DNA of 57,487 nucleotides from a bacterium (lineage in GTDB: Bacteria > Patescibacteriota > Minisyncoccia > Phycocordibacterales > UBA1006), in the NCBI GenBank assembly GCA_043771175.1, contig JAYVHO010000012.1, positions 1 through 57,487 on the forward strand, given 5' to 3'. Positions 26,433 through 37,798 of this stretch are shown here, piece after piece. Under the pieces are notes generated by a model that ran no database searches, had not been told where the DNA came from, and saw only the letters and a program-made list of their open reading frames with translations. Position numbers and translations under genes: made by a program. The first letter of the stretch is position 1, and each line of letters starts with the position of its first letter.

Positions 26433-26462
26433 AAGCCCTGCCGATATATCGGCAGGGCTTTT
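26433..26462. terminator. Perfect 28-bp palindrome/terminator
   Basis: aagccctgccgata|tatcggcagggctt followed by tt. Confidence 0.7.
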
Positions 26463-26499: not shown

Positions 26500-29400
26500 A
26501 TGAAAAAACCATTATGGTATAAGCAATTAACAGTACTGCTCATATGCTCACTGTTAATGCAAAACTTATTTGCTTTCACTTTGGTACACGCTCAAGAAGA
26601 AGTTGTGATAGAAACACCTCTCACAAATTCATCCTCGGTCGATGTACCTTTTTTAATACCTCAAGAAGTTATCTCTGGTGAATTACCAAATAGAACACAG
26701 GATGTTTTGCCATCTGAAGTCTTGAAAGTAGAAATACCTACTGAAACACCAAAACCACAATTATCAGATTCAGCGCCTGACATTGCACCAGATACCACAA
26801 ATTTAAATCCAGATACCACAAATTCTCTTGCCGCAGTAGCAGAAAAAGAACAAACAGGGCGTAATGCACCATCAATAACATCAGCAACTGAACCATTTCA
26901 ACAAACAGCAGTTCTTCAAAAGCCTCAGTATGTTGCTAAGCCTGATGTTGATAATACTACCGGTGCTATGAGTTTTGATATTCCTTTTGAAATTCCAATC
27001 CCAGAAATGATTGACCAAAAACTCGTTCCTCAACTTTCTCTGTCATATAATTCAAGTAATACTGCTAAAAATACCCCTTTTGCATATGGTTGGAACTTTG
27101 ATATACCAAGTATTTATCGAATTAATGAGCGTGGAACTGATAAGATGTACCAGTATAGTACAAGCCTCATGTCTTCAAAATATGGAATTATTCGATATAT
27201 AAATGATGGATATTCTGTATATAATGCTGATGTAATTCCGCAAGAAATTAAATCTAAAAACATGAATGCATATCCAAAAGAACTTGAATTCGGGTATCAA
27301 AAAGATATAACGAAAGAAACCTATCAATTATTTGCAAAGCCAAATAATGAATCGGTTAAAGAAAGTACGATAGCTGGTGATGTTGCGAATGATATTACGA
27401 GCTCGGTTATCGTTGTGGATACTACTACCGAAAATTCATTTTCTTCGTCAAATCAAGCAAAGCAAGTTTTTACACCTGCCATTGAGGTACCATCAACAAA
27501 TATAAATCCAACCGCACCAGTTTCTCAAAATGCGATGGTTCCCATTATTGATAACGGAACGCAAACAGAAATAATTTTAAATAGTGCAACCTATATTGAG
27601 CGTAGTTCCGACGGGTATATGTATTATTATGGATATGATGACAGTTCACGACAAAATTCGGCAACTGATCCATATAAAATTTATAAATGGGCACTATCCA
27701 AAATAATTAGCCCAAAAGGTGATAGGACAGAATATTATTATATTGAGTCAAATGGACAATTGTATATTTCAAATATTAAGTATGGTTTAAATACTACTAC
27801 CGACACAGGTGCCTATTCCATCGACTTTACCTACAACATGATTACACCATTTAAAGCATATGATACGGGCTTTGAGGTAGTAACGGATCGCTTGCTTTCT
27901 GAAGTGGTGGTAAAATCTATGATTACCAATCAAGTGGTATATAAATATCAACTCAATTACTCAATTGATAGCAGTTTTTCTTACAATTTATTAAATTCAG
28001 TAAATAAGATTTCTGCAACAAATTCAGAATCTCTCTACTCATTTGGTTACACAACGGGGGGTGGACAGTTTTCTACAACGGGTATTCCGATGACAACAGC
28101 AAGCGGAGGACAAAATGCAAACTGTAGTATTCAGGATTCAATTGATGGATTATGCCGTCAATTGCTTGATTTAAATGGTGATGGTTTGACTGATTATTAC
28201 ACTATTGATAATACATATGGTTATTTAACCGTAAAATGGTATATAAATAATGGTGTTGAATTTGTATATTATTCAAATTCTCAAATATCATTAAACAATA
28301 CTGGAGGTTCATATAATATGGTATTTGATGTGAACGGAGATAATATGCCGGATCTCATTACTCATGAATTAAATGGTTCTAAAAATGTTTTTATCAATAA
28401 CGGAGAAAAATGGCAATACCGATATGATTGGATAGCACCACCATTTAGTTTGCGAAATTTTTCTCTGCGGTCAGATGTCAAAAATTTTGGTGTTACCTAT
28501 TCTGATGGGTGTTGGACAGGAGAATGGAATTGTTCTGTATTTAAAGGGTTCATTTTTGATATCAATAAAGATGGATTAAATGATATTTTTAGACTTAAAG
28601 GTGCTCAAGATCAAGAGTTGTGGATAAATAATGGAAGTGGTTGGACTCTTGATACTTCAGGTAATTTTAAAATTTCATTTACGAGCTATGAAACATTTAG
28701 CACGATTATGAGCGATAATGTTAAATATAGTTTGGTTGATATTAATGGTGATGGATATGAAGATTTCTTTAAACAATCATCAGAAAATAGTACCAGCTAT
28801 ATGGCATATCTGTATAATCCAAGTAACTTGCAATGGTATTATGTTGGTGCTTTTTCGCCTTCATTTAATGTATGTGGATTGTATTCAAGCTGTCCATTTT
28901 CAATGAGTGATTTAAATAATGATGGACTGATTGATATTTTTACCAATTCTCGTATTTATCTTAACAAGGGATATGACTTTTCGCTGGTGTTTGATAGAGA
29001 TCCAAATACTGGTCAAGTAAATGTTAATAATGGGTTTTCTATGGCATCGGTGCCACATAATAACATTGCCGCATTTTCATCATTTTCTGGTAATGGTTCT
29101 GTTGATGTGTATACCACCAACAATTCCGTTCAATATACAAGTAATGGAAAAGATGGTTTTGCTACTTTAAACGGATGGAATGCTAATGAGGCATATCAGC
29201 AAAAGTTTATTGATATGAATGGTGATACTATGACGGATAAGGTTACTCAAAATGCTGTGTATTTAAATCAAGCCACAACTCCAGGATTACTCAATTCAAT
29301 TAAAAACAAATACGGTGGTGTAGCTCAAGTGAATTACAAAACATCAACTGCATATACAACGCACCAAGGATATACTGCGCCAATCAAAACTGTTGCGAGT

Positions 29401-32400
29401 ATTAATTTTATTTCATGTGCAATTACCGGTAGTAATGCATTTCAGGATACCTGTACGGAAAATGGAAAAGTTGAGTATGCCTATGATGGTGGTGTTTTTG
29501 GTTTAGATATATTTGGTAAGTCATACAATTTTTCTGGATTTAGAACAGTAAAGAAGAAAACGTATAATCAAAATAATCAGCTTTTGGATAATGCGGTATA
29601 CACCTATAACGTAAACGAAAGTACCTATCCTGATTATTATAGAAATGCCATAAATAAGTCATTGCAAGGTATCGAATATTACGGATCAAATGGAAATATT
29701 ATTAAATCATCCTATTATTCATATTATGTATTTAACCAAGATCATATAACAACGAAGCAAGAATTTAAATCGATTCGTCCATCATATGAATTTAATAGTG
29801 TTTCAAGCTCATCATCTACCATTGAGCTTGATAACAAGATATATTTTTATAATTCAACAAAGCAATTAGCTAAAGTGTGCTACGGCACTAATAATCATAT
29901 AACTGGTGATGTGAATGCGTGCGGGCTTAAAAATGATGTTTTTTTCTATACGAGTCCATACTGGGGAGAGATATTTAAAACAGAAACATATAATTCAGCG
30001 GGGTTTAAAGTAAAATCAAATGAATTTTACTATGATAATTTGGCCCTTGGTTTAACTTCGGCTGCACGCAACCTTACTCAAACGGTTGAATCAGTTGATG
30101 ATTCCAGTTTAAAAAATGAAACCTATGAATATAATTCGAAAGGAAGATTAACTAAAAAAATATTCCACGGAGGTAGAAGTATTACGTATGCATATGAACC
30201 AAATCAATTGTTTGTTACATCAGAAACGGATCAATTAGGTTACATTACTACAAACACCTGGAACTATGGTTTTGCTAAGCCACAAACTAAAACACTACCT
30301 GATGGGGGAATTATTAGTTATACCTATGATGGGCTTGGGACTCCAACGCAAACTATGCTTGCGTATGGTGTTAAGAAAAGAATCAGTCAGGTGATTGAAT
30401 ATCCATGCCAATCAGTATGTGCATCATGGCTTTCATATAGAATAGTAAGTTCATCAAATAATACCAGTAACGGTGAGAATATGTCAGAAGAATCGTATCA
30501 ATTATTAGATGGATGGGGTGAAGTAGTTTCTGAAAGAATCAATAAAGGGATTGCAAAAGGGGTTGCGTCATATGTATATTCACATACCGTGCGTGATGTT
30601 CTGGGAAGAATAATAAAAAAATCAATTCCAACGAGTTCAACCACGAAACTTTCACAAGATTATACGACAACAACATATGACACATTGTCTCGTCCCGTGC
30701 AAGTAGAAAATACACTAGGAATAGTGACCAATATCTATGATGGTATGTATGTTACCACTACAAAACCAAGCGGTAATAAAAAGATGGTGAGATACAATAC
30801 GTCAGGAGGAATCGCTGCTGTTTATGAATACCTTACACCAACATCAACACCGTTTGTCACTTCATATTGGTATGACCACAATAACAATATAAAAGGTATT
30901 ACTAATGCGGCAGGACAATCAAAATTCTTTACCTATAATCATATAGGACAATTGACATATGTTACTGATTTTAAGTCGTCAAATGACACTACCTATATGT
31001 CAAATTCGATCATATATTATATTTCATCGGGTGCAGTGTTTCAGTCAAAAGATGATGTTCCAGGTACCTCTACGTGGAATTATGTGGATAATTTAGGTCG
31101 TAGTACGATGTTGTTTTATCAAAACCCTGCACTCACAGGAAGTGCATCATTTGAAAATCGGTATTCGTACACGTATGATACTTGTGTTGGTGGTATCAGA
31201 AAAGTTTGTTCAGTAACAAGTAATAAAAATAACTATAAAGATGAATATACCTATGGAGCATTCGGGCAGATTACTACTTTTAAAAGAACACTCCTCGCAC
31301 CAAAACCAGGTGCAGCTGCGTCAGCGATCGCGTACAGCGTTTCATATGAATATAATCAACGTGGTGCTGTTTCAAAAATTATTTACCCAAACAATTCATA
31401 TGTCAGATATACGTATGGTGACTTTGAAAAGGTAGAAAATGTTTATTACTTTTCACCTATCACCAATCAAGAACTTTTAATTGGAACATATACATACAAT
31501 GCACTTGGGCAACCAGTGACGGTTGCAACTCGCCAAGGAACATATACTAATCAATACAACTCAAATAAGCTTAATCAATTATCAACAAAAACATTTAAGC
31601 GTCGTGGTGATTCAAAATCACTACTATCAACTAGTTTTATTTATGATAGTGATGGAAATTTAGTATTCATAAATGATGCACCACAAGTAGGTGATGCTAC
31701 TATGAAGACGTACCAATATGATGGCCTTGGAAGACTTACTCAATCAGGGTACAGCAATAATAATCCATCTGTTCCAAATACTACCGACACGTACACATAT
31801 GCTTCAACCGGTGTGTTAATGCAAAAAAATCTGACAACCGTAAATAAATCTCCTAGCACCACCACTACGGTAGTTACCAATTACCAATACGGTGGCACCA
31901 GTTATGAAAGCCCCTATGCACCAACACAAATTGGAGACACAACCCTTACCTATGATACCTATGGAAACGTAATTCGATATAACACCATCGGTCCAGACAA
32001 AGGAACAGAAATAACATACAACGGCTTGCGCCAAATTGAAACCGTTAAAGATTATTCAGGAGTTCAAAAAACTAAAGCGTCAACCATTACAGTATTTCCA
32101 GATGTACAAGTTAATTCACCAAGTGTTCCTTATACGTTCACTGACGAGGAGGGATCATTAGTTAATTCATTAGCAGAAGTTGACACGGCAGGTGTAATTG
32201 AACCTCAGTCAACGGTACCTGCTCCTGTGGTATCTGCAGGTGGGGGAGGAGGAGGCGGTGGTGGCGGTGGTTCACCAGGTCCAGTACCAGTACAAAAAGT
32301 TGCCGGAACTTCAGTGGTTGTTATTGATGATTATTGTCAATTGATAGAACTTGGCACTACTAATTCAAAATCACTCACATCAAATATCCTTACATTGGAA

Positions 32401-33939
32401 TCAATTTTGGTAAATAAATTGTTCCTTTCAAAAAAATACCGTGATGGAAAATGGGATATACAAACAACACGTGCAATGAAACGACTTCAATCAAAGATGA
32501 GGGTCAAGCAAACGGGGGTGTTTGATATCACAACCAAAAAAGCAGTTTCAAAAAATCTATGTAATAAGAAAGAATTAAAGAATAGTACCTTATTAAAACT
32601 ATTCTCTGAAATTAAAGTAGCGTTTGAGCCAAAGAAAGCCTATGCAGAAGTAGTCATGAAACCAGGTACTAAAATAACCGGCCCCGTATCAATCCGCCAA
32701 GGAGCGTCCCGCGGAGTCTATCAAGGAACCATCACCGGCCCCTGCACCATTGTTGGTGCCTACACCACCTGTACCACCAAATCTCTCCCTCATGCTCAAA
32801 TGACCTATGATGACAGTGGTCAAAGAATCCAATACATAACTCCAGATTCTATAGAAACCACTATAGTCCCAGAATACGTAGTAAAAAACAACAAACCAAC
32901 GCTTACTATTACCATAGAAGGAATCCCCCTCATCATCATAGAAGACTCCGCAAACACCTATCCGGTAGTAGATTACCAAAACTCTCCCAAACTCCTTCTC
33001 AACCAATACTCTCAACGTATAGAAGAACGAGACTACACTGACTACGGATCAGAAAGATACACCAGATCTACCACTCCATCATCTAAAACAGATAAAACCT
33101 ACACTAACCACCAATTAGATAATGAAATACGGTTTCAGTACTTAGGTGCACGGTACTATGACCCTGAACTATCTATCTTTCTAACGATGGATCCTGCTAC
33201 AACATACGTTCCTCAAGATATATTAAATCCTCAATCATTTAATACGTATGGGTATGCAGAGGGGAATCCGGTGATGAAGGTGGATCCGGATGGAGAAAAT
33301 GCCGTTGATGTATCTGTTGGAATAGGTACTGGAATATATGGAACCACCGTAGGTACTATACAAACAGTATGGATAATCATGGCAAGTCCATATTCAAAAG
33401 CTGCTGCCGAACAGTATCAAGAATTAACAAGTCAAACAGCTGATTTCTATATTGATGCTGGTAAAGGAGCTGCATATCTTGCTCAAGATCCACAAGGATT
33501 TACTAATGATCTTGTTACCTTAACCAAGGCAGATGGTGGTGCTGCAATAGGTCAAGCTATTGGTGCGGGGATAGGAGCAGGGATTGTGACTGCTGGGGTG
33601 GGGAGGATAAGCACAGCGGGGAGTGTGGCAAAAGTTTCGACAACTGCCGAAGTGGGAACTTATTCAACATACCGTGGATTTGATGCTAATACTGGAGCTG
33701 TAAAATATACCGGTATAACAAGCAGAAATCCAATTATAAGATTTAATGAGCATTTAAAGTCAGCAGGAACTGGAAAAGAAAATTTAAGATATAGGGTAAC
33801 AGAAGCAAATATTACAAAGAATGCAGCCAAGAAAATTGAACAAGCTGATATAAATAAATTTGGTCTTCAAAAAAATGGTGGACAATTGTTGAACAAGATA
33901 AATTCGATTGGCAAAAAGATTATAAAAAAGCTAAAATAA
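26500..33939 (+). CDS. RHS/YD-repeat polymorphic toxin (signal peptide, SpvB-like, FG-GAP/VCBS repeats, YD repeats, RHS core, GIY-YIG-like C-terminal toxin)
   Basis: Signal peptide ending VHA; VDNTTGAMSFDIPF...QLSLSYNSS...GWNF (SpvB-like); repeated DxNGDGxxD; core RYYDPELSIFLTMDP...GNPVMKVDPDG; tip YTGITSRNPIIRFNEH...IEQ...GGQLLNKINSI. Confidence 0.93.
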   Translation: MKKPLWYKQLTVLLICSLLMQNLFAFTLVHAQEEVVIETPLTNSSSVDVPFLIPQEVISGELPNRTQDVLPSEVLKVEIPTETPKPQLSDSAPDIAPDTTNLNPDTTNSLAAVAEKEQTGRNAPSITSATEPFQQTAVLQKPQYVAKPDVDNTTGAMSFDIPFEIPIPEMIDQKLVPQLSLSYNSSNTAKNTPFAYGWNFDIPSIYRINERGTDKMYQYSTSLMSSKYGIIRYINDGYSVYNADVIPQEIKSKNMNAYPKELEFGYQKDITKETYQLFAKPNNESVKESTIAGDVANDITSSVIVVDTTTENSFSSSNQAKQVFTPAIEVPSTNINPTAPVSQNAMVPIIDNGTQTEIILNSATYIERSSDGYMYYYGYDDSSRQNSATDPYKIYKWALSKIISPKGDRTEYYYIESNGQLYISNIKYGLNTTTDTGAYSIDFTYNMITPFKAYDTGFEVVTDRLLSEVVVKSMITNQVVYKYQLNYSIDSSFSYNLLNSVNKISATNSESLYSFGYTTGGGQFSTTGIPMTTASGGQNANCSIQDSIDGLCRQLLDLNGDGLTDYYTIDNTYGYLTVKWYINNGVEFVYYSNSQISLNNTGGSYNMVFDVNGDNMPDLITHELNGSKNVFINNGEKWQYRYDWIAPPFSLRNFSLRSDVKNFGVTYSDGCWTGEWNCSVFKGFIFDINKDGLNDIFRLKGAQDQELWINNGSGWTLDTSGNFKISFTSYETFSTIMSDNVKYSLVDINGDGYEDFFKQSSENSTSYMAYLYNPSNLQWYYVGAFSPSFNVCGLYSSCPFSMSDLNNDGLIDIFTNSRIYLNKGYDFSLVFDRDPNTGQVNVNNGFSMASVPHNNIAAFSSFSGNGSVDVYTTNNSVQYTSNGKDGFATLNGWNANEAYQQKFIDMNGDTMTDKVTQNAVYLNQATTPGLLNSIKNKYGGVAQVNYKTSTAYTTHQGYTAPIKTVASINFISCAITGSNAFQDTCTENGKVEYAYDGGVFGLDIFGKSYNFSGFRTVKKKTYNQNNQLLDNAVYTYNVNESTYPDYYRNAINKSLQGIEYYGSNGNIIKSSYYSYYVFNQDHITTKQEFKSIRPSYEFNSVSSSSSTIELDNKIYFYNSTKQLAKVCYGTNNHITGDVNACGLKNDVFFYTSPYWGEIFKTETYNSAGFKVKSNEFYYDNLALGLTSAARNLTQTVESVDDSSLKNETYEYNSKGRLTKKIFHGGRSITYAYEPNQLFVTSETDQLGYITTNTWNYGFAKPQTKTLPDGGIISYTYDGLGTPTQTMLAYGVKKRISQVIEYPCQSVCASWLSYRIVSSSNNTSNGENMSEESYQLLDGWGEVVSERINKGIAKGVASYVYSHTVRDVLGRIIKKSIPTSSTTKLSQDYTTTTYDTLSRPVQVENTLGIVTNIYDGMYVTTTKPSGNKKMVRYNTSGGIAAVYEYLTPTSTPFVTSYWYDHNNNIKGITNAAGQSKFFTYNHIGQLTYVTDFKSSNDTTYMSNSIIYYISSGAVFQSKDDVPGTSTWNYVDNLGRSTMLFYQNPALTGSASFENRYSYTYDTCVGGIRKVCSVTSNKNNYKDEYTYGAFGQITTFKRTLLAPKPGAAASAIAYSVSYEYNQRGAVSKIIYPNNSYVRYTYGDFEKVENVYYFSPITNQELLIGTYTYNALGQPVTVATRQGTYTNQYNSNKLNQLSTKTFKRRGDSKSLLSTSFIYDSDGNLVFINDAPQVGDATMKTYQYDGLGRLTQSGYSNNNPSVPNTTDTYTYASTGVLMQKNLTTVNKSPSTTTTVVTNYQYGGTSYESPYAPTQIGDTTLTYDTYGNVIRYNTIGPDKGTEITYNGLRQIETVKDYSGVQKTKASTITVFPDVQVNSPSVPYTFTDEEGSLVNSLAEVDTAGVIEPQSTVPAPVVSAGGGGGGGGGGGSPGPVPVQKVAGTSVVVIDDYCQLIELGTTNSKSLTSNILTLESILVNKLFLSKKYRDGKWDIQTTRAMKRLQSKMRVKQTGVFDITTKKAVSKNLCNKKELKNSTLLKLFSEIKVAFEPKKAYAEVVMKPGTKITGPVSIRQGASRGVYQGTITGPCTIVGAYTTCTTKSLPHAQMTYDDSGQRIQYITPDSIETTIVPEYVVKNNKPTLTITIEGIPLIIIEDSANTYPVVDYQNSPKLLLNQYSQRIEERDYTDYGSERYTRSTTPSSKTDKTYTNHQLDNEIRFQYLGARYYDPELSIFLTMDPATTYVPQDILNPQSFNTYGYAEGNPVMKVDPDGENAVDVSVGIGTGIYGTTVGTIQTVWIIMASPYSKAAAEQYQELTSQTADFYIDAGKGAAYLAQDPQGFTNDLVTLTKADGGAAIGQAIGAGIGAGIVTAGVGRISTAGSVAKVSTTAEVGTYSTYRGFDANTGAVKYTGITSRNPIIRFNEHLKSAGTGKENLRYRVTEANITKNAAKKIEQADINKFGLQKNGGQLLNKINSIGKKIIKKLK

Positions 33940-34499: not shown

Positions 34500-34688
34500 A
34501 TGAAATATATACAAAACATAAAATCAATCATAACGGTAATCGGATTACTTATCGTGTATATGATTTTCGAATTCATAGCTCCAAATGTTACTTCTGATAC
34601 CATAGATACGCTATTTGGAAATCTTATTGGTATTGGACTTGTTGTGGCTTTGATTATTGACTTGATGAGATATTTGAAGAAAAAGTAA
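34500..34688 (+). CDS. Small two-TM hypothetical protein
   Basis: 62 aa with two hydrophobic helices, in the toxin operon orientation. Confidence 0.55.
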   Translation: MKYIQNIKSIITVIGLLIVYMIFEFIAPNVTSDTIDTLFGNLIGIGLVVALIIDLMRYLKKK

Positions 34689-34689
34689 A

Positions 34690-35643
34690 ATCATTACCAT
34701 AGAAGACTCCGCAAACACCTATCCGGTAGTAGATTACCAAAACTCTCCCAAACTCCTTCTCAATCAATACTCTCAACGTATAGAAGAACGAGACTACACA
34801 GACTACGGATCAGAACGATACACCAGATCTACCACTACATCATCTAAAACAGATAAAACCTACACTAATCACATATTAGATAATGAAATACGTTTCCAGT
34901 ACTTAGGTGCTAGATACTATGATCCTGAATTATCTATCTTTCTGACGATGGATCCTGCTACAACATACGTTCCACAAGATATATTAAATCCTCAATCATT
35001 TAATACGTATGGGTATGCGGAGGGGAATCCGGTGATGAAGGTGGATCCGGATGGGAAGGAGCCAAAACAAGGTCAACTTGCAACATTATCTCAAGTTGTT
35101 GAATATATAACCTATAAAAACATAAGTAATTATCAAAATCAAATTAGTTTCGGAGAACTAGCAAAAGCATTTGGGGATAATGTGAAATGGGATAAAAATA
35201 TTGGTGGTGGGTACGTTATGATTCAATCTGGCTCACCAAGATATATTTATACCGAAAATTCAGGATGGATTGATATGCAGCATTTCTTTGGCTCAGCCGA
35301 ATATACACAAAAATATGGTAAAAACATAACTTTAGTAGGTGGTTATTTGTTTGAATTACTTCAAGAACAAGTCTTGAAAGGACAAAAGGCATCAGGTTTT
35401 TCATACGAAGACATAACCTCAAATTATTATGGTGCTCAATTTTCAAAACAGTATTCATTAAAAATTAAAAATGGTGATATTACAGTACAAGATGCAATAT
35501 ATGAGTTTTTTAATATGATGGAACCTAAAAAACCAATTGAATCACCAAATATTGATAAAATCCCGTTTCAAACAAATAAATCCGGGCCATCTCAAAAATC
35601 AAACACTGTAAAAAAGAAAAATAATAAAAAGAAAAATAAATAG
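34690..35643 (+). pseudogene. Orphan RHS core plus alternative C-terminal toxin cassette (no native start)
   Basis: The frame is open from 34678 with no ATG until the internal Met at 34948. After DPDG comes an unrelated tip containing RYIYTENSGWIDMQHFF...FSYEDITSNYYG. Confidence 0.88.
34698..35054 (+). repeat. Direct repeat of the RHS core (copy of 32937-33293)
   Basis: 357 bp, ungapped at offset 1761, with about 17 substitutions by hand count (~95% identity); it ends exactly at the DPDG codons. Confidence 0.95.
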
Positions 35644-35660
35644 TAGAATATAATTATTAT

Positions 35661-36239
35661 ATGAAAAATACTTCAAAAATAAAAAACATAGTTTTGTTCT
35701 CGCTAGGGTTTGTAATTTCTACGCTCATTATTAATACTCTTCAGCTAATTCCTATTAATGAGATCACACCTTTTGTGGCGTGTATAAAAAATGCATTAAG
35801 TGTCATGCTGGCTATAGGCGTAGCGCTAAGTGTTTTTTTTGCATTTTTTGTACTATGGTTAATTATTCAAAAAAAGCTTAATTTGGTATTAAAAAAATAT
35901 AATTTAGTTCTTCTTTCTAAAATAGTATATATAGTAATTACTGGAATAGGTGTTATATATTTCACGGTATCTATTTTATCTATTTTTGATAGATTAGATT
36001 CAAAATATCTCAGTAGTAAAATGGCTAGAGGTGTTTTTGGGAATACCATTGGCCATGAATTGATGTTATCGGACACCAGCGAGAGAGTATACTATAAAAT
36101 GATGATGGGCGATCGTCTTTATTATGAAAAAGGCTCGACGATATTGTATTGTGGATTAGAAAACTATAAAAAATGTGTTCAAGATACTGTCGAGTATAAA
36201 TTTATTAATCAAGATGTATATATTGAATATAATTTGTAA
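35661..36239 (+). CDS. Putative membrane immunity protein for the orphan toxin
   Basis: Directly follows the orphan tip and has three N-terminal TM segments. The role is inferred from position. Confidence 0.55.
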   Translation: MKNTSKIKNIVLFSLGFVISTLIINTLQLIPINEITPFVACIKNALSVMLAIGVALSVFFAFFVLWLIIQKKLNLVLKKYNLVLLSKIVYIVITGIGVIYFTVSILSIFDRLDSKYLSSKMARGVFGNTIGHELMLSDTSERVYYKMMMGDRLYYEKGSTILYCGLENYKKCVQDTVEYKFINQDVYIEYNL

Positions 36240-36257
36240 TTAAATAATGGATGATAT

Positions 36258-36732
36258 ATGAAAGCAAGTAACGAAACAAAAATATGGGTTGCAATAGTAT
36301 TTGTAATTATTGTCTTAATAACAATTAGAATCATATATACCAAAAATGAGACAAAATTTGAAAGAAAACTAACCAATCTTGTACAATCAAAATAACTATA
36401 TTGTTGATGCAAATAATATAATTGATGAAGATTGGGATTATGTGCTTGTGGGTAGAGGAGTTGATTATAATAATGTAGAAATGAAAGATGTTGTTGATTA
36501 TGATAATTTCAAACTTCAAGCATTAGACGGTAACGTTTTGGTATTTTATAAAAATAACAAGATTATACAGATGTCAAACTTTCAAGTTTTGATTGAGGGA
36601 TATAAGCAAAATGAAATATGGATTAATACATCAGATAAAATAATAAAAGTAAATTACGGACATCTCAATTTTATAACAAAGATTATAGATTATGATAAAT
36701 CCGTAATTGAACTTACTTTGTTTTCTAACTAA
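36258..36732 (+). pseudogene. Frameshifted membrane-anchored, immunity-like protein
   Basis: MKASNETKIWVAIVFVIIVLITIRII...LVQSK* joins ...NNYIVDANNIIDEDWDYVLV... if one base is removed, for example from the A4 at 36389-36392. Confidence 0.6.
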
Positions 36733-36734
36733 AA

Positions 36735-36892
36735 ATCACCGGCCCCTGCACCATTGTTGGTGCCTACACCACCTGTACCACCAAATCTCTCCCTCATGCT
36801 CAAATGACGTACGATGACAGTGGTCAACGAATCCAATATATAACACCAGATTCTATAGAAACCACCATCGTTTCAGAATACGTAGTAAAAAA
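36735..36892 (+). repeat. Truncated third copy of the RHS pre-core segment (copy of 32731-32888)
   Basis: 158 bp, ungapped at offset 4004, with mostly third-position changes. It is not followed by a core or a tip. Confidence 0.92.
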
Positions 36893-37081
36893 TCAACACT
36901 TACAATTTTTGAATAAATGGCTATAACCGCATGGTAAATACATGAGATACCATGTACTTTACAAAATATGTAATATATGTTATTATAAGTTTGTCGTGTT
37001 AGAGAACAAGCACGTAAATCCTTGCAGGTGTAAGGTGGTCAGACGTAAAACTGATCGTTCATAACTTAAAAATTAAAAAAG

Positions 37082-37798
37082 ATGACAAAGATTAAAGTAG
37101 GAATTTCGCTTGCGTTCGTTATCCTTATGGGATGTTTCATGTTCGGATTTACCGAATTTATGGGGATATTGTTTAATCCCATTGTTAATTTTCTTTTTGT
37201 GAAGGTACCTGTGTGGTTTAATCTTTTGGAAATCATAGTGGTGTTGATAGTTTATTTTGCATATAACAAGGCAGTTAATAGACAACATCAGCCAGATACA
37301 CTTTCCAGGTCAAGAGAGCTTTTAAAAGAAGCTTTGGCGATTCAACAAAACCCTGCAGAATATGCAAATATTGAAGAACTCAAAAAATTCGAAAAGTTTA
37401 CTCGACACAAAGAAACTACCGATGGCTTTAAAAAAATTTCACAATCTACGGTAAATGCAATTCTTCGACACTTTGATTATAAAACCGTTTTTCATATTAA
37501 TTATGCAGATGGAACTATAAACTGGAATCCCGAAGAAGCTCGAATATTGTGCGGAGCCCTCCAGCAGTGTGAAATGATTGCCGGTTCTGATATTGCTTAT
37601 TCAGTTAAACATAATTTACGTAAATTTTTACGTCAAATTATCGAGCTTGATGACAAGATTTTTAAGAAATCAGGTAGCAAGAAAGCACTGATTTTGTACT
37701 TACAGGAAAATCTAGATATTTATCGAAGAAAATACATAGATTGTGAATTTTTCTTTGGGGTAAAATTTAGTAAAAAAAAGTTAGTTGCCACTATGTAA
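37082..37798 (+). CDS. Hypothetical membrane-anchored protein
   Basis: Two N-terminal TM segments followed by a soluble helical domain. Confidence 0.7.
   Translation: MTKIKVGISLAFVILMGCFMFGFTEFMGILFNPIVNFLFVKVPVWFNLLEIIVVLIVYFAYNKAVNRQHQPDTLSRSRELLKEALAIQQNPAEYANIEELKKFEKFTRHKETTDGFKKISQSTVNAILRHFDYKTVFHINYADGTINWNPEEARILCGALQQCEMIAGSDIAYSVKHNLRKFLRQIIELDDKIFKKSGSKKALILYLQENLDIYRRKYIDCEFFFGVKFSKKKLVATM

Follow-up and report, generated by a model that had tools for sequence, protein, structure and literature searches.

The window analysed here is a 57,487-nucleotide stretch of DNA (contig JAYVHO010000012.1 of assembly GCA_043771175.1) from a bacterium of the Patescibacteriota lineage UBA1006, and its subject is the open reading frame (ORF) of 2479 codons at 26500-33939 on the forward strand. 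With high confidence as far as the identity of its parts is concerned, we regard this gene as one for an Rhs polymorphic toxin of the TcdB/TcaC class, in which a single chain is equivalent to the 'BC cocoon' of TcB and TcC. An unbroken frame of this length, in a region with a G+C content of 33-39%, is not a chance frame, and it is exactly the one singled out by the original prediction, which was made from the sequence letters alone. That prediction had also placed the gene in a genome of the candidate phyla radiation (CPR) type, and the kinship labels obtained in searches of other genomes agree with this placement. The source organism is an ultra-small bacterium and probably an episymbiont, and its assembly comprises 670,136 bases in 23 contigs at 89.65% completeness.

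Architecture of the toxin chain

The assignment starts from the domain matches. When the toxin is scanned in pieces, SpvB (50 bits), FG-GAP_3 (51.7 bits over five stretches), TcdB_toxin_midN (41.5 bits) and RHS_repeat (32 bits) all exceed their Pfam cut-offs, and the NCBIfam model Rhs_assc_core (TIGR03696) gives 51-59 bits at residues 2179-2265. Six DxNxDG motifs fall within residues 557-905. The mature chain has 18 cysteines that form nine sequential pairs, eight of them with a spacing of 4-14 residues and the remaining one bracketing a peptidoglycan-binding domain, while the C-terminal tip (residues 2266-2479) is devoid of cysteine.

To characterise the shell, residues 1075-2270 were modelled using an alignment of 21 homologous shells and four paralogous copies of a cassette that is inserted in it (see below). 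The model shows a beta-hairpin spiral with a predicted local distance difference test (pLDDT) score of 70-95 at residues 1159-1834 and a confident core at residues 2154-2264. Its best structural match is the TcdB2-TccC3 fusion, both as crystal and as cryo-EM structure (E 5e-33, TMq 0.55-0.57), followed by the Rhs cores of type VI secretion systems (T6SS), teneurins and YenC. Since the core retains both Asp-Pro motifs and the DPDG end, self-cleavage at this point is plausible.

The chain begins with a putative Sec signal peptide, assigned by eye and hydropathy, that has KK in its n-region, a hydrophobic core reaching 2.0 on the Kyte-Doolittle scale, and a predicted cleavage between VHA and Q. 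The public gene call begins instead at M20 (2460 residues; position 26557 versus 26500) and drops the charged n-region. We take M1 to be the better start, because it brings the charged n-region of a canonical Sec signal peptide. A -10-like box, TAGATT, lies 4 nucleotides upstream of the ATG, and the promoter scan as a whole was uninformative (52 sites versus 67 expected). The hairpin that precedes the gene would set it apart as a separate transcription unit.

These results agree with what had been read from the sequence alone. The signal peptide and Pro/Thr-rich linker, the SpvB-like region, the several DxNGDGxxD (FG-GAP/VCBS) repeats, the YD repeats with the RHS autoprotease core, the close Cys pairs and the toxin tip are all recovered, with the qualification that cleavage itself is predicted. 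Both SpvB and TcdB-mid, whose absence would have counted against the prediction, give matches, and the shell modelling that had been proposed leads to TcdB2-TccC3. The tip, which had been considered as possibly non-toxic in a mere adhesin, looks like a nuclease-type domain with a cognate immunity gene. The earlier description of the locus was thus right about the toxin, while it overlooked the immunity gene, the array of orphan tips, the PG_binding_1 insert and the second locus that are described below.

It can be mentioned that a metagenome contig with a homologue of 2490 residues (P0051) has AhpC/Redoxin and DsbD-type genes directly upstream of the toxin gene (L035:2523-3822), and these may be a disulfide-handling pair for the Cys-paired exported giant. 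VKOR was also searched for and not found.

The tip, its immunity gene and the orphan array

We now consider the tip, which comprises 214 residues and which we identify, from homologues, motifs and a model, as ending in a putative GIY-YIG nuclease domain of the Tox-URI1 type with all conserved catalytic positions intact. A HMMER search, run exhaustively with residues 2266-2479, gave 539 cluster representatives that match the last ca 90 residues at about 50% identity. In these proteins, which range from 100 to 2900 residues, the module is mostly C-terminal, and its presence at the end of carriers of all sizes is a signature of polymorphic toxins. In an alignment of 36 members the Y, YxG, R, H, E and N positions are invariant, and the toxin retains all of them (TYSTY at 2387, YTG at 2403, RFNEH at 2414, KKIEQ at 2444 and NKINS at 2465). 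The basic residue preceding the Glu is conserved in kind only, being K here and mostly R in the relatives. These positions agree with those given for Tox-URI1 (Y, YxG, R, [RK]xxE, N) by Zhang et al. (2012, PMC3482391).

Pfam and NCBIfam scans of the toxin's own tip gave no match, and the identification was made solely via homologues: Pfam GIY-YIG matches 35 of the 36 aligned relatives (best E 4e-7). A profile built from the alignment and compared with the PDB finds only the GIY-YIG-type domain of GRXS16 (E 1.5). At the level of structure, the core of the tip model has a pLDDT of ca 94, and each of the 19 best Foldseek matches is a GIY-YIG nuclease, PD-T4-3, UvrC-N and Slx1 being among them (best E 4e-3, probability 1.00; template modelling (TM) score 0.6 by target for UvrC-N). 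The part of the tip that precedes the nuclease has its Kyte-Doolittle peak at residues 2347-2371, and similar hydrophobic segments precede the nuclease in many of the relatives. We infer that this Gly/Ala-rich stretch could be a membrane-entry element.

The gene that starts 2 nucleotides past the toxin stop codon encodes a candidate immunity protein of the Imm26 type. Homologous ORFs of 160-176 residues are found directly after the tip in five loci in total, with 27 invariant columns: the present one, one on contig C17 of the same genome, where a second GIY-YIG tip is followed by a homologue with 30% identity (E 8e-17), and three unrelated loci fetched via the tip homologues, one of which belongs to another SpvB-RHS protein of 2490 residues. 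Three of the five proteins are matched by Imm26 (PF15428; best E 1e-4), and in the Atlas the 176-residue protein lies with the Imm26 clusters (feature score 0.95, structural TM 0.82). A word-based homologue search with the immunity protein returned only itself. The pairing is a known one, as Tox-URI1 is listed by Zhang et al. (2012, PMC3482391) with TcdB/TcaC export and with Imm26. A promoter-like site in the 3' end of the toxin gene (33908-33937; TTGGCA, 18 nucleotides, TAAAAT) ends 3 nucleotides before the immunity ATG and, as a consensus match, would give the immunity gene a separate, near-leaderless transcript.

Downstream of the immunity gene, the core of the toxin is repeated. The stretch 34691-35057 is 94.6% identical to 32930-33297 (the Rhs core, 368 nucleotides), and the two copies are homologous exactly as far as DPDG, where core and tip join; the Rhs core model has its second match in the window at 34795-35055. 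This is the classical layout, in which orphan tips accompany a main Rhs gene. No convincing family was found for the orphan tip, for which DUF4056 is a weak match only (16.6 bits) and for which the Atlas leads, namely YkzU, DUF6973 and SAA-like clusters, have scores of 0.90-0.92 at low recognition; none of these was adopted. The ORF of 62 residues between the immunity gene and the first orphan cassette may be a remnant or may encode a further immunity factor. The coordinates of all features are collected in Table 1.

Table 1. Features of the toxin locus, with positions in the window (or on the contig named) and the basis of each assignment.
Feature	Position	Strand	Basis or remark
Hairpin, 12-bp stem, GC-rich	26433..26460	.	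between upstream gene and toxin gene
Toxin ORF, 2479 aa	26500-33939	+	single unbroken frame of 2479 codons
Predicted Sec signal peptide, residues 1-31	26500..26592	+	sequence, hydropathy
Pro/Thr/Ser-rich low-complexity linker, residues 32-150	26593..26949	+	P 13%, T 11%, S 8%
SpvB/TcaC N-terminal domain	26956..27759	+	profile match in two stretches
FG-GAP beta-propeller, residues 557-910	28168..29229	+	profile and six DxNxDG motifs
TcdB_toxin_midN, residues 898-998	29191..29493	+	profile match
YD/RHS beta-hairpin spiral of shell, residues 1159-1842	29974..32025	+	profile, model
Insert of ca 240 residues (linker, poly-Gly, PG-binding domain, linker)	32026..32751	+	approximate bounds; absent from insert-free homologues
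Gly11 tether, residues 1914-1924	32239..32271	+	mixed GGN codons
PG_binding_1 domain between Cys1946 and Cys2021	32335..32562	+	PF01471 match
Final YD repeat and terminal shell strands, resuming past insert	32752..33033	+	by eye versus same-order homologue (L019)
Rhs-associated core, residues 2179-2265, two conserved Asp-Pro motifs, DPDG end	33034..33294	+	profile, motifs
Pre-toxin part of tip, residues 2266-2379	33295..33636	+	Gly/Ala-rich hydrophobic segments
Putative GIY-YIG (Tox-URI1-type) nuclease, residues 2380-2473, short basic tail, stop	33637..33939	+	homologues, motifs, model
Imm26-like immunity gene, 176 aa	33941..34471	+	position, homologues, Imm26 likeness
Small ORF, 62 aa, two hydrophobic segments	34500..34688	+	between Imm26-like gene and orphan cassette
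Orphan cassette 1: Rhs core copy and different 195-aa tip	34691..35643	+	repeat identity, core profile
192-aa protein, several hydrophobic segments, candidate immunity for orphan tip	35661..36239	+	position
117-aa ORF within array	36379..36732	+	ORF
Orphan fragment 2	36735..36898	+	93.9% identical to 32731-32893; stop soon after
238-aa protein, hydrophobic N-terminal segments, final gene of array	37082..37798	+	ORF
Paralogous cassette carriers	C8:67918-71016, C9:16994-18979, C4:7450-9420, C4:10958-11737		same genome (G000)

The insert in the shell and possible modes of action

While the equivalent shell has ca 800-900 residues in insert-free homologues, it has ca 1110 in the present toxin. The extra stretch, at about residues 1843-2084, is located just ahead of the last YD repeat and the core, and contains the PG_binding_1 domain (PF01471) that is enclosed by Cys1946 and Cys2021. 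On a piece of the toxin this domain scores 23.1 bits versus a cut-off of 23, and on longer queries 19-21 bits. In the model, the linkers of the insert have a pLDDT below 50 and three helices have 55-75.

The same Cys-bracketed cassette, there at 32-42 bits, terminates four other proteins of the genome with Sec signals, one of which is S8-protease-like by its sequence motifs. The run of 11 glycines, preceded by VVS, is also present in two of these paralogues (C8 and C9), making three genome copies of Gly11 with that of the toxin. PG_binding_1 has 11 matches in the genome at E <= 1e-6 and is present in all seven sampled genomes of the same order, while a sortase was not found in the assembled 670-kb genome. 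Non-covalent binding to peptidoglycan may thus be the organism's main means of retaining surface proteins. From these sequences, poly-Gly followed by a Cys-bracketed PG_binding_1 or dockerin-like module looks like a lineage-typical surface-anchoring cassette, and in our reading the insert would be the lineage's standard non-covalent wall anchor. It would be placed in a loop of the shell rather than at the C-terminus because the C-terminus of the toxin is the encapsulated tip.

In other genomes of the class (L021, L024, L026 and L028-L030), runs of 8-16 Gly are seen before a C-terminal PG_binding_1 or dockerin-like module. The option that poly-Gly acts as a slippage switch was also considered and was rejected in view of the mixed GGN codons and the identical Gly11 of the C8 and C9 paralogues.

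In the mechanism that we propose, the chain would be exported unfolded via Sec and would fold outside the membrane, where the nine disulfides would form. Cleavage by the Rhs aspartyl protease after DPDG would then leave the Cys-free tip of 214 residues free within the shell. The steps past export and encapsulation are those that we infer. The PG_binding_1 domain, on its Gly11 tether in the shell loop, would retain the loaded cocoon non-covalently on the producer's peptidoglycan, and this step taken by itself we consider to be about an even call. No sortase was found in this organism, and at least four of its other secreted proteins end with the cassette. Contact with a neighbouring cell would lead to release of the tip, the Gly/Ala-rich hydrophobic segment would aid its membrane crossing, and the nuclease would cut the DNA of the target, while the Imm26-like protein would guard the producer and its kin. 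Recombination over the 368-nucleotide core repeat could bring in an orphan tip.

It should be stressed that several points weigh against this interpretation. Expression, autoproteolysis, nuclease activity, wall binding and killing are at best predicted, and the route of the nuclease from a wall-bound cocoon to the cytoplasm of another cell is unexplained for the class as a whole. Pfam GIY-YIG does not match the toxin's own tip, the structural E-values of the tip are modest (4e-3), and the Imm26 score of the 176-residue protein is 16.2 bits against a cut-off of 23.3. PG_binding_1 is barely at its cut-off, and this on a sub-piece only; the insert is mostly modelled at a pLDDT below 50, and an outward-facing orientation is assumed. 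Finally, a completeness of 89.65% limits what can be claimed about absences in the genome.

A tentative generalisation, which we put forward as possible but still doubtful, is that in injector-less CPR cocoons the loops of the last third of the shell are sockets for exchangeable positioning modules, and that in the present case a C-terminal wall anchor has moved into such a loop and replaces the positioning by TcA or a T6SS spike. Such a move would be explained by the enclosure of the real C-terminus within the shell. If this is the case, the module would hold the loaded cocoon at the surface of the producer, or at the wall of a neighbour, in the contact zone of the episymbiont. Homologues have other modules in loops of this C-terminal third, namely DUF2341, LamG and F5/8 type C in P0005 and Ig_Rha78A_N in P0006, while a genome of the same order (G178) has a Gly-rich domain there.

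The variety of these binding-type modules (LamG, F5/8 type C, Ig-like, Gly-rich) can also be taken to mean that the PG_binding_1 insert is an address, such that the cocoon is released and docks on the peptidoglycan of the target, which would be a host bacterium or a competing CPR cell; lectin-like inserts may have this role in related cocoons. In line with this scenario, an RHS toxin reported from Saccharibacteria (PMC6031116) carries PA14 and galactose-binding domains. However, the identical Gly11-Cys-PG_binding_1-Cys cassette ends the S8-protease-like and other ordinary secreted proteins, a distribution that a generic retention on the own wall fits better than a target-specific module does, and docking on the target is in our view rather unlikely. 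Another scenario is that the toxin is mainly an adhesin or a teneurin-like surface shell, with a tip that has no role in killing. Teneurins and the mosquito SGS1 are indeed among the structural matches, and wall-binding and propeller modules are typical of surface proteins. However, the tip has kept all of its catalytic positions, five loci have a dedicated immunity homologue directly behind it, and orphan tips with immunity candidates of their own are retained downstream. As these are hallmarks of an active toxin system, we give the adhesin scenario hardly any credence.

It is also conceivable that the cocoon acts with an unrecognised partner, such as a divergent TcA-like translocator or surface machine, whose gene would lie in the tenth of the genome that is missing from the assembly or would be one of those for the giant surface proteins. 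The structure 6h6e is among the top matches of the shell model, and in Tc toxins the SpvB/propeller end is the face on which TcA docks. The original prediction had stated that no T6SS, VgrG, PAAR or TcA gene is present in the window, which is correct, and the search for delivery partners was extended to the 670-kb genome in all six frames. There, no match was found for TcA_TcB_BD (PF18276) or VRP1 (PF03538), two models that gave no match in any control genome either and for which a positive control is therefore missing, nor for VgrG/Phage_GPD, PAAR or WXG100. The genome, 89.65% complete, does encode ORFs of 9501 and, fibre-like, 2583 residues. However, the three large ORFs that were scanned turned out to be tail-fibre-like, helicase/restriction-type and EF-hand/dockerin, none of them TcA-like, and class members in other phyla mostly occur without TcA (Zhang et al. 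2012, PMC3482391). We therefore regard a hidden partner as improbable, and the earlier description of a self-contained, exported toxin with no known injector holds for the assembled genome.

Relation to known systems and the remainder of the genome

The closest known system is the TcdB/TcaC class (Zhang, Aravind et al. 2012, PMC3482391), with which the toxin shares the signal peptide, SpvB, the integrin-like propeller, the RHS repeats, and a variable toxin at the C-terminus next to its immunity gene; both Tox-URI1 and Imm26 are listed for the class. In contrast, CPR/Patescibacteria are not in the table of that paper, and the present toxin has a PG_binding_1 cassette before its core. It is thus a member of a class catalogued in 2012, including the tip/immunity pairing, that recurs in CPR genomes; the new variation that it adds, a shell with a wall-anchor cassette, is modest, and the knowledge of the class is unchanged by this locus. 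The nearest full-length relatives found have 23-28% identity, one of them from an uncultured-bacterium metagenome record (ACD_58C).

The Photorhabdus TcdB2-TccC3 (4O9X, 6SUQ, 6H6E) and Yersinia YenB-YenC (4IGL) cocoons have the same domain order and the two Asp-Pro motifs for self-cleavage, and the modelled half of the shell has its best structural match among them. TccC3 carries an ADP-ribosyltransferase aimed at insect cells. The present toxin differs in being one chain instead of two, in lacking a TcA that could be found with models that have no positive control, and in having an antibacterial-type nuclease tip, an immunity gene and orphan tips. For the latter, the Rhs loci of Enterobacteria offer a comparison: a main Rhs gene and its immunity gene are followed there by promoterless core fragments with alternative tips and immunity genes. 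The layout is the same here, with homology that stops at the core/tip junction, but the enterobacterial toxins are delivered by T6SS, whereas the present one would be exported by Sec, from a genome of 670 kb.

Sec-exported, wall-anchored Rhs toxins are established in monoderm bacteria, the example being WapA of Bacillus subtilis and Streptococcus suis (PMC12704120). WapA resembles the present toxin in its Sec export, cell-wall-binding module, YD shell and polymorphic C-terminal toxin with an immunity gene, and likewise has no injection machine and an unexplained route of entry into the target (PMC12704120). In S. suis, the part of WapA that binds the wall consists of LysM repeats at the N-terminus and requires the cognate sortase SrtB (PMC12704120), while the present toxin has an internal PG_binding_1 (residues 1946-2021), no sortase that was found, and an SpvB/propeller head. 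The resemblance is functional only.

For the survey across Patescibacteria that had been suggested, 400 other species genomes were sampled. SpvB matches are found in 12 of them, each time in an open frame with a length of 1600-2700 residues, and one of the 12 is from the same order. A Saccharibacterium with a secreted RHS toxin of 2487 residues and an immunity gene had been described in 2018 (PMC6031116). The present locus is of value as a clean case, parsed in full, of an interbacterial weapon from an ultra-small bacterium, in which toxin and immunity gene are accompanied by an orphan array and by a second locus. The wall-anchor insert leads to a testable idea on how injector-less cocoon toxins are positioned, and both the Tox-URI1 tip and the Imm26-like protein are of a size that suits tests in a laboratory host.

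The second SpvB-RHS toxin locus is spread over the contigs C13 and C17. On the former, a frame that starts with a signal peptide and SpvB is cut off by the contig end (C13:17751-18284), and the latter, of 3.6 kb (C17:1-3599), has two more core-plus-tip cassettes with immunity candidates, one tip being GIY-YIG with an Imm26-like gene and the other of the GG.WD.K type. The ends of C17 overlap each other, which suggests a collapsed repeat array, and the body of the second toxin gene is absent from the assembly. Two such loci make up a noticeable share of a 670-kb genome.

The two giant frames mentioned above are an open frame of 9501 residues (C6:3-28505) and a tail-fibre-like one of 2583 residues that carries DUF2793 and, at its C-terminus, the chaperone domain Peptidase_S74 (C8:1-7749). 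For a genome of this size, such surface proteins are very large.

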